From the NCBI RefSeq assembly GCF_004010195.1, contig NC_057718.1, positions 9,650,985 to 9,697,696 on the forward strand: a stretch of 46,712 nt of DNA. Direction: 5' to 3'. The stretch is from Chiloscyllium plagiosum (lineage: Eukaryota). The translations under genes were made by a program, and so were the position numbers. The first letter of the stretch is position 1; every line of letters begins with the position of its first letter. The notes below the pieces were generated by a model, which made no database searches, had not been told where the DNA came from, and worked only from the letters and a program-made list of their open reading frames with translations. Below, in pieces: positions 6,142 to 9,100 of the stretch.

Positions 6142-9100
6142 GTACTGTGAATCCGGAGAATTCACTTCACGGTAGTACAGGTCGTTCTGTTAACAACGCA
6201 CAGTTTGTCAATGCGAATTTGCTGTAACCCACTTGACAAAATAGGGATGCTGTTTCTACAGTGCAAACTTTTAAAACATGTGTTGGTTGTCATGCAATTA
6301 CAGTACCAAACTTTAAGCACTGTTTCTAAATTGATTTTTGTATAATGCGGGTTTGCACAAGAACGCAACTATCATCTTATAGAAAACTGACCATACAGAT
6401 TTTGAATATTGCAAGTCATGTCTTGCCAACCTGTCAGCATTCTTTACTCTGAGTAAAAATTGTTGAAATCATTTAAAATGTGGTTTTCTTGCAATTTTCC
6501 AAATGAGTGCGTAATTAAGAGCTTCAGTAGCATGTCTTACTTTTCAACGCCATTCAAGTTCACTTCTGTTAGTCCTTTCTCTTTGGACAAAAGAGTGGAA
6601 TTGGCATTTACAATTAAACTTGCATTGTTTTGTGAACAGGAGCCCAGGTTTTCAATGCCATTCCTTTGTATAAAACTAGAGATGTGTATAAAAACAAAGA
6701 TTAAGACAGCTTAATATCTGCAAAGGTTTCTTTGTATGTGACGCCGCTGATTTATTTATTTGATTTCATCCCCATTCCTCTTCCCCTCTCTTAGGATTCT
6801 ACATCCCCAGTTATATCTCCTCACCAATCACCACCAACTTCACCAGTTGCTTGGAGGAAACACAGCAAGCAGCATCCAAGTGGAGGTACTACATGATTCT
6901 AGCATGGACTGGGCTTCCTCTGGAAGTAGATAAAAATCACACAACACCAGATTATAGCCCAACAGGTTTATTTGGAAGTATTAACTTTTAGAGCACTGCT
7001 CCTTCATCAGGTGTAACCCCCACTGGGCTATATAGTCCTTACACAGTACTATGGCTCTATGATTGGCTGTGACTTACACAGTGGGGACAGCTTCCACCCA
7101 CCTGGAAAATTTGTCCATAATTACCAGGATGTCTGAATAGCCTTGACAGCGTGAGAATGACAAATAATGAGGGTTATTCTTCGGATGGTCTGTGTGGACA
7201 TGTTGGGCCAAAGGGCCTGTTTCCACACTGTAGGGAATCTAATCTAATCCACTGGCAAGTGCTGTAAGTCAGTTGGGGAACTTGCACTTTTGTTCTGGGG
7301 TTGTTATTCTGGCAAGTGAGGCAGCGGTTCACCACCGCTTGGGCATATTGTTTTAATCCTTGTCCCTCCCAGCTGTGCTGGAACTGGGCTGTCATTTGTT
7401 CAGGCCCCGAATGTCCCCATGCATGAATTTGTTGTGCTAGGTATGGCAAGATTCTGGGTGTGACTGATCGATTTGATTGCTGATGTCTCCAAACTGCATC
7501 CTTGCATAGCCTATGTCCAGTTTTGATCTATTCTCATTCCTCTCCCTGGGAACATTCATTCTGCATTGTTTGCAGATTTTGATTTGCAGTCCCAATGTCA
7601 AGCTGGCAGGTGTGCGCTTGAGGCTCTTGGCAGGACTGCTTGGATGCAGCTGTTTTGGCTGCCTGACCTGCCAGTGCATTATCTTGGGCTTCCATGATGT
7701 TATCTTTAGTGTGGGCTTTGCACTTCAACATGGCCACTTCTTTAGGCAGTTGGAGAGCTTCCAGCAAGCCCTTGACTTCCTTCCCATTTCTGATGTCTGT
7801 TCCTGCAGCCGTTAGGAATCCACCCTGTATCCATAGTTGTGGGCAACCCCAAAAACATAGGGAGTCCATATAAATATTGGCAGACTGATCCTCTGCTAAT
7901 CTGCAGGCTTCCGTCAGAGCTCTTAATTCTGCTTGCACTGCCGATGCTCTGGTGGGGGGGATGGTGTAGGCTTCCTGATGCCATGACGGTATGCAGTGCG
8001 GTGACAGCCCATCCGGCTTTCCTTGTACCCTTCTTCAGAGAAGAGGATCCGTCGGTGTAAAGGATGAGATCTGGGTTTTGCAAGGCCTCGTTTATCATAT
8101 GGTTAATGTCCTCCACATTATTCCTTTGGAAGAGCACAGCTGGCTCTCGAGCAGTGGTTAACTAATGGGTAACAAATTATAGAATCTGTAGATTTGGGCA
8201 GTAAACCGTGCAAATGTCTAGCTACTTCCCATGGATGTGGGTGGGCATATGCTTCTAATGTTTCTGCACACTAAGGCTGGAGAATGCCACTCCAAATGAC
8301 AATGTTGTTTTGTAATTTGAGCTGAGAAGTCAAATCCACTGAGCACCTTAAGAATGATATCATACATTTCAGCATTCTAGTTTTCTTTAAGTTTCTTTGC
8401 TTTCTTTATATTGCTTTGTTGCCATTCCCTCCCTTAACTGTCTGCTAACGTGTCTATATTTATAATGAACTTTAGTATTACTTGCAACTTAACTTAGTTC
8501 ATGTAGACATTAGTGGATTTCTAAACCTTCAGTAGAAGAATTTTTAAAAAATCTCAGATTAAAAAAGTGTTTTAAAAAAAAATGACGGTACCTTTTTAAG
8601 AATAATTAGTCACTATTTGCAAGTCAGTCACCTACAATCTCCACAAATCGGTAGGTAATTCAAAATGTGAAGCAAGGAGCAAATTCTGATTTGGACATTG
8701 TTCTATTCCTTTCCCCTCATCTGCTTACCTCATCCCTTCAACTATTTATGTGCTAAATTCAGTTTTCTCATCACTTGGAAATTCAGAAGAAACCTGTTCC
8801 CTATTGATTAAATTTATTCTGATCACAAGTGGACAGAGATGCTTTGTTTGTCATATCAACATCCCCATAATTTTGTTGTTTATCAAAGGGGGTCTGTAAT
8901 TGATTTGCATAATCACAAAACTGCCAGTTCCCTAATTCTGTTAGCAAGCATCACTTTGGGTTTGCCGTGAGCTAGGTGCAGATGTTATTGTCAATGAAGG
9001 CTTTAAACAAGAATGGAGGTGGGTAGTTTTATCATGGTCAGTTGGAATATCTCGGTCTCCCTTAGTGGGATTCAAATTCTCTCTTGGCTTATTCAATTTT

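Follow-up and report, generated by a model that had tools for sequence, protein, structure and literature searches.

The short exon 4 of REPS1 in Chiloscyllium plagiosum is the usual form in cartilaginous fishes and is followed by a probable relic of a lost coding tail

Does exon 4 of the endocytic adaptor gene REPS1 end early in the shark Chiloscyllium plagiosum through local damage, or is a short exon 4 what cartilaginous fishes normally have? The question arises from a stretch of 46,712 nucleotides (nt) on contig NC_057718.1 (positions 9,650,985 to 9,697,696, forward strand; hereafter the window, meaning that whole stretch). Here, an earlier sequence-only reading had seen the frame of exon 4 run into stops after the peptide HPSGG, and had proposed that an insertion removed the original splice donor, that an internal donor rescued the exon, and that about 22 residues were lost. 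We found that exon 4 reads as an intact, working exon and not as a damaged one, and that, by the testimony of the gene models, its short form is the old, normal, and already annotated REPS1 form of cartilaginous fishes. We consider it likely that an old donor shift, shared by the whole clade, left the former end of the exon, a tail of about 22 residues, in the following intron, where it later decayed by stops and an insertion.

Using tblastn, we obtained 18 ordered matches on the window, from 6004 to 38545, for the C. plagiosum REPS1 isoform X2 (P0027), with mismatches confined to places where alignments ran on into introns or where isoforms differ. Residues 1-46 of this model were 100% identical to the exon 3 part at 6004-6141, residues 47-78 were identical to the window as far as the exon 4 donor, and residues 77-118 matched the exon 5 region at 100% identity. 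Exon 4 closes with CAG CAT CCA AGT GGA G, yielding the peptide end HPSGG, and exon 5 opens with GG TCT GCT GCT GGT GAT GGG ATG TGG. The earlier proposal that the donor GAG/gtacta at 6885/6886 is of phase 1 and fits exon 5 was borne out, as the join from 6885 to 10987 combines G and GG into a glycine codon, followed in frame by SAAGDGMW. Hemiscylliid RefSeq models join the two exons in exactly this way, and the exon 4 peptide is also found in Chiloscyllium and Hemiscyllium models. Exons 3 and 4 together measure 291 nt (200 + 91) and preserve the frame, as had been pointed out. Past the donor, the exon 4 frame continues as GGT ACT ACA, TGA (6894-6896), TTC, TAG (6900-6902), CAT GGA CTG GGC TTC CTC TGG (6921-6923), AAG, and TAG (6927-6929). 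Direct reading thereby confirmed the succession of in-frame stops, GLGFLW, and repeats that had been described, with repeat DNA starting at about 6927/6928 instead of 6931. With the frame stopped at 6894, 6900, and 6927, no tandem donor of the same phase lies downstream of 6885, and upon removal of the insertion described below, the nearest GT dinucleotides would extend exon 4 by 62, 65, and 77 nt, none of which is divisible by 3.

The short junction is shared across the clade. Among 80 cartilaginous-fish REPS1 models, H-x-S-G-G is joined directly to exon 5 (HPSGG/S) in 65, which amounts to 65 of the 70 that contain the junction; 5 of the 80 carry an insert, and 10 are without the junction (alternative starts, fragments, and one frame-shifted model). 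Judged by model names, the 65 span 22 species, namely 12 sharks (the zebra shark and lamniform, carcharhiniform, hexanchiform, and heterodontiform sharks among them), 9 batoids, and 1 chimaera. At the level of protein models, only the stingray Hemitrygon akajei and the Callorhinchus UniProt entries exhibit both short and insert forms. In the stingray, isoforms X1, X6, and X7 carry the 10-residue insert NAESIWTSFG and isoforms X4 and X8 are short; in Callorhinchus, two UniProt entries carry an unrelated insert, ERLGWREGAAREDW or its variant ending in EDCVG. A search for the stingray insert among cluster representatives found it in 1 of 35 matches and in none other. The inference across species draws on protein models and on two models that read into introns. 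As a separate observation, isoform X7 of Heterodontus francisci (P0041) reads exon 4 in another frame, skips exon 5, and regains the frame at exon 6; this alternative frame is also open in the window (open reading frame (ORF) 6751-6930), and the model is probably an artefact or a rare isoform.

Outside the cartilaginous fishes, a tail of about 22 residues follows HPSGG in REPS1 of primates and other mammals, frogs, Latimeria, a marsupial representative, the teleost Notothenia, and a Logan fish contig. The human tail quoted in the earlier reading is indeed present in human and other primate REPS1 proteins (e.g., P0078), and the estimate of about 22 missing residues holds relative to bony vertebrates. 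In the Logan fish contig (P0320, 1551 bases), HSGG is followed by the unbroken tail, a short intron-like stretch rich in Phe codons, and exon 5, an arrangement suggesting that exon 4 of a bony fish includes the tail at its 3' end, as the earlier reading had it for human. A REPS1-like protein of the hagfish Myxine has the tail in shortened form (AERGQPVSWKPFTERSMG). As the hagfish stands outside the jawed vertebrates, the simplest reading would be a single loss of the tail from the main isoform, early in cartilaginous fishes and on their stem. The possibility, raised before, that a separate small exon supplies the peptide did not find support: upon searching intron 6886-10986 in three frames with 7 tail and insert peptides by Smith-Waterman alignment, the best scores stayed within the shuffle null (19 to 80 of 100 shuffles as good), and the best-looking candidate, IWTLFYS at 8689-8709, has no usable splice sites.

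The beginning of intron 4 is instead probably what is left of this tail. A partial whale-shark model (P0319) runs past the donor for 18 residues without stops, and its residues 84-127 align by tblastn to 6795-6926, covering exon 4 and then NTGLKQGLGFLWK, with GLGFLWK placed at 6906-6926. Its residues 124-132, FLWKSTAGS, correspond to 8121-8147 with 9 of 9 residues identical (E value of 0.002 when the 18-residue tail is compared to the window). Since the end of the whale-shark read-through reappears at 8121-8147, the intervening 6927-8120 appears to be a later insertion, and with this insertion removed, the GT at 8157 lies 65 nt from the used donor, compared to 66 nt for the ancestral tail. In the two pieces of window sequence that correspond to the whale-shark downstream sequence, five codons have changed, two of them into stops, all within the first 6. 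We also observed that the differences are unevenly spread: 12 codons (6903-6926 and 8133-8147) are identical to the whale-shark model, and of the 6 codons that precede them, 5 are different. Either chance or constraint, e.g., on a splicing element containing a GGG run, may account for this. The read-through tail of the whale-shark model P0001, compared as a control for neutral divergence, gave no match to the window intron at that place.

We quantified the likeness to the tail with a profile of 23 non-redundant long-form sequences, from which cartilaginous fishes were excluded. The score of the whale-shark extension was reached or exceeded by 7 of 500 shuffled sequences and by 20 of 2000 random 18-codon stretches of the window, and that of the stingray insert by 2 of 500 shuffles. 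For the window itself, frame 0 between exons 4 and 5, with the insertion removed, reached 82.9 bits, compared to 69.7 ± 5.3 bits for random 22-codon stretches (5 of 2000 as high), whereas frames 1 and 2 remained at background (969 and 1535 of 2000 as high). In a MAFFT alignment, both shark read-throughs had their W in the same column as the tail W, and the N-[STAN] that opens the tail was matched by N-T in the whale shark; the whale-shark extension thus opens with N-T like the coelacanth tail. The suggestion that GLGFLW is a relic of the tail is hence plausible. A match of frame +1 (6895-6927) to the stingray insert had also been considered and was dropped because frames 1 and 2 stood at background.

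The insertion that separates the two pieces shows flanking direct repeats, an empty site in the whale shark, and copies elsewhere in the genome, as expected for a transposable element. It has at least 60 matches in the species' own 3.56-Gb assembly, and copies of 6928-7013 recur in the window at 161-240, 27316-27392, and 27402-27488. The pol fragment within it (7177-8034, minus strand) contains two ORFs with Pfam matches to RNase_H (3.6e-9) and Integrase_H2C2, a zinc finger (2.8e-7), and no long terminal repeats were found around it. The coordinates of all features are collected in Table 1. Elsewhere in the window, strong GC skew (0.24-0.35) was seen at 2001-4000, 12001-16000, and 44001-46000, and by visual inspection of the ORF list, ORFs at about 12.2-13.0 kb and 44.9-46.3 kb resemble reverse transcriptase; these stretches are presumably long interspersed elements (LINE type) in introns and flank.

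Table 1. Features of the REPS1 exon 3 to exon 5 region, in window coordinates (a slash marks an exon-intron boundary).
Feature	Position	Strand	Details
REPS1 exon 3	5942-6141	+	200 nt; donor CAG/gtactg; sequence read directly
REPS1 exon 4	6795-6885	+	91 nt; acceptor ag at 6793-6794; 30 residues and first base of a Gly codon; intact, conserved
Proximal 5' splice site in use	6886-6891	+	GAG/gtacta, phase 1, boundary 6885/6886; sequence read and join to 10987
Putative tail relic, part A	6886-6926	+	frame 0; stops at 6894-6896 and 6900-6902; aligned with whale-shark P0319
Left 12-nt direct repeat, putative target-site duplication	6915-6926	+	TTCCTCTGGAAG; 11 of 12 identical to 8121-8132
Composite insertion	6927-8120		1194 nt; absent from whale-shark P0319; short repeats and antisense pol fragment
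Short element	6927-7013 (insertion query 1-87)		many own-genome copies, 91-95% identity
Second short element	about 7171-7254 (insertion query 245-328)		own-genome copies, 93-97% identity
Old retroelement pol fragment	insertion query 87-242 and 343-1189		antisense; own-genome copies, 74-85% identity
Right 12-nt direct repeat	8121-8132	+	TTCCTTTGGAAG; direct-repeat family D13
Putative tail relic, part B	8133-8156	+	frame 0, STAGSRAV, then GT at 8157-8158
REPS1 exon 5	10987-11111	+	acceptor ag at 10985-10986; internal alternative donor TGG/gtgagt at 11048/11049

From these data, we infer an order of events and a donor-shift mechanism, and below a role for the motif in the tail. The ancestral vertebrate exon 4 would have run about 66 nt further and encoded the 22-residue tail, in which a W-x-x-[F/Y]-x-[D/E] motif is the best conserved element. 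On the cartilaginous-fish stem, the main donor would have moved upstream to a G/GTAAY-like site within the Gly-Asn codons, whereupon the tail became the start of intron 4. Inclusion of the tail probably lingered as a minor isoform, as the stingray still has models with a 10-residue version, which are the only direct sign of persistent tail inclusion. In the lineage of the window, the abandoned tail would then have gained two in-frame stops and the 1.2-kb insertion; it has no in-frame distal donor. Because the short junction is clade-wide and the whale shark has neither the stops nor the insertion, the shift of the donor would predate the damage by a great span of time, and the damage would be secondary decay of sequence that had become dispensable. 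The readable tails of the whale shark and the stingray open with Gly-Asn and the same bases serve as G/GT, so the donor there would be G/GTAAY; codons for Gly-Gly-Asn plausibly offered a ready-made 5' splice site and thereby a route for the shift. The used donor is located at exactly these codons, in line with the earlier claim of an internal donor at a place where the ancestral exon carried on.

The strongest competing explanation accepts the short exon as the cartilaginous-fish state and takes what follows for an ordinary, partly repeat-derived intron whose likeness to the tail arose by chance. Several observations speak for it and weigh against the history we prefer. The window taken alone is a weak witness: its first 13 codons were equaled by 19 of 500 shuffles and by 239 of 2000 random stretches, which is not distinguishable from chance, and several frames and W codons had been tried before the controlled test of frame 0. 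An interspersed repeat family of the window has the 14-mer at 8127-8140 (TGGAAGAGCACAGC) as its core, and such a repeat could therefore have supplied part of the relic, even if the identity stops at these 14 nt. The Callorhinchus inserts, considered as homologues of the tail, are unlike it and were rejected as no better than shuffles (492 of 500 and 304 of 500 as high, respectively). Taken alone, the 12-nt direct repeat carries no significance, as the surrounding 1.3 kb contains 23 repeat families of comparable size; since 12-mers are that common by chance, the case for the insertion rests on the whale-shark peptide, which spans both flanks once. The junction from 6885 to 10987 is backed by the annotation of related or identical-protein species, and two large clusters were sampled at 15 of 31 members each, such that tailed isoforms of other species may be hidden. 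Furthermore, a tail that had evolved neutrally for over 400 million years would not be expected to remain recognizable; our reading hence requires that a minor isoform kept the tail until late, and one stingray is the only species for which such retention is shown. Against chance, however, stand the specificity of the signal for frame 0, the scores of the whale-shark extension with its coelacanth-like opening and of the annotated stingray insert, and the next GT at nearly the ancestral distance. On balance, we regard a chance likeness as unlikely. The sequence-only reading had itself allowed that the short exon might be the ancestral chondrichthyan state with no homology beyond 6885; its first half agrees with the clade-wide short form, and its second half conflicts with the frame-specific likeness to the tail.

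As to the repeat itself, it is an interspersed, hairpin-like element (4231-4467, 5183-5440, 46469-46712, and others) with mirror-image ORFs on both strands (containing CWKSAAGQAAS) and the 14-mer as its core. The idea that the intron start is an old copy of this element was rejected: exact identity is confined to the 14-mer, and the matching pieces do not follow each other as they would in a single collinear copy.

Far less probable is the original proposal that the repeat insertion destroyed a distal donor in this lineage and that a cryptic internal donor rescued the exon, with a recent loss of 22 residues. Foreign DNA was indeed inserted at about 6927 and splits the former tail, the whale-shark model has neither the stops nor the insertion, and GTACTA, as the donor in use, falls short of a strong consensus. 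As cause and in timing, however, the proposal fails: the short join is found in 65 of 70 models and the site is empty in the whale shark, and the presence of the short junction in 22 species places the use of the proximal donor long before the insertion. Although isoforms starting downstream of exon 4 occur in other sharks (P0006, P0131, and P0032), the suggestion that exons 3 and 4 are skipped or dead here, or that the stops are assembly errors in a tail that still codes, is hardly tenable, because both exons have clean splice sites and are protein-identical to annotated models of close relatives, exon 4 is conserved across cartilaginous fishes, the differences from the whale-shark read-through at 5 of the first 6 codons and the 1.2-kb split exceed base-call errors, and the locus is single-copy in the assembly.

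As a lead to its role, the tail carries a motif that may bind an adaptor. The sequence WXX[FW]X[DE] is described as a ligand of the sandwich site of the AP-2 alpha appendage (PMC5694535, a review, and PMC3794858, on NECAP 1). A related pattern, W..[FY].[DE], occurs in 23 of the 23 long-form tails, with F in 13 and Y in 10 (frogs); the strict consensus is matched by 13 of 23, as the Y at +3 of the frogs falls outside it, and neither the shark relic (WKSTAG) nor the stingray insert (WTSFGS) matches it. Beyond the tail, the consensus is also matched in REPS1 by WVSF[AT]D in exon 5 and by WETFSE farther downstream, and cartilaginous fishes keep both. The internal donor of exon 5 cuts within the first of these (W/VSFTD), and isoforms ending in ENW/EHTTV, without 21 residues of exon 5, are annotated in sharks, rays, frogs, and a marmoset; this donor may act as a parallel switch that removes a second motif. 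We tentatively suggest, as a possibility that we hold to be doubtful, that the lost tail was one of three W-x-x-F-x-[D/E] motifs of the AP-2 alpha-ear type, that it became dispensable through the donor shift and persisted in a minor isoform through much of elasmobranch history, and that REPS1 may tune the number of its adaptor motifs by donor choice. Survival of the tail in such an isoform would explain why the relic is frame-specific and of near-ancestral length (65 versus 66 nt). In the excerpts returned by a literature search for REPS1 with WXXF, no paper tied REPS1 to the motif, the sole co-mention being in a reference list, and a search on REPS1 splicing, exon, and shark listed no paper on exon 4. 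Separately, a further exon opens with a Gln codon (25615-25617) that is absent from some isoforms (e.g., P0027), which looks like a choice between tandem acceptors (NAGNAG type) beside another W-x-x-F-x-E match.

The identity of the locus is secure on several counts. The match to annotated REPS1 is collinear, exon by exon, and takes in the EH-domain exons. Many shark and ray REPS1 models, which carry Pfam PF12763 in precomputed annotation, match the 55-residue exon at 11909-12073 with 100% identity, and REPS2 sequences are clearly distinct from REPS1 in the exon 4 region. The fit to the window is about equal for the X1 models of C. plagiosum, C. punctatum, and Hemiscyllium ocellatum and worse for Stegostoma, so that the window behaves as expected of a hemiscylliid shark; the sequence of P0127 recurs in an independent annotation entry of C. 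punctatum. Within the own 3.56-Gb assembly, 6560-6926 has 1 match, and no second haplotype or copy of the REPS1 locus was found there.

Regarding annotation, no correction is needed: the short exon is correct and already present in RefSeq for closely related sharks. What the locus adds is an event that can be dated and that spans the clade: as we read it, a conserved endocytic adaptor was shortened when its splice donor shifted, and the abandoned coding sequence can still be traced in the intron. If the W-x-x-F-x-E of the tail binds AP-2, cartilaginous fishes would be a natural deletion of one of three sites, and with the donor inside exon 5 considered as well, donor choice would seem to set the valency of REPS1 as an adaptor. 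The evolutionary significance of the case is modest.

Compared to known systems, the closest counterparts are the hemiscylliid RefSeq/Gnomon REPS1 models (C. plagiosum, C. punctatum, and H. ocellatum; e.g., P0027, P0121, P0127, and P0124), which represent the same gene with identical exon 3-4-5 peptides and junction, whereas their annotation is silent on the lost tail, the relic, and the insertion. In bony vertebrates (human, frog, coelacanth, and teleost) and the hagfish, the peptides on either side of the site are orthologous to those of shark exons 4 and 5, but the tail of about 22 residues (shorter in the hagfish), of the form N-x-[ED]-R...W-x-x-[FY]-x-[DE], stands between HPSGG and exon 5, where the main shark form has none. 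The lost tail resembles the AP-2 alpha-appendage ligands (PMC5694535 and PMC3794858) at the level of sequence, with W-[STKAPF]-[PSH]-[FY]-x-[DE] in 23 of 23 long forms. Finally, the REPS1 event is akin to the shift of intron boundaries, i.e., intron sliding or partial intronization, a concept named in PMC2740785, in that the 3' end of an exon passed into the intron through an upstream donor of the same phase; it differs from that concept in being old and clade-wide, in leaving what is probably a frame-specific relic, and in the optional inclusion seen in the stingray models. The REPS1 case thus fits best among events of a known kind, to which it adds another example: a shift of the 5' splice site that turns the end of an exon into intron.

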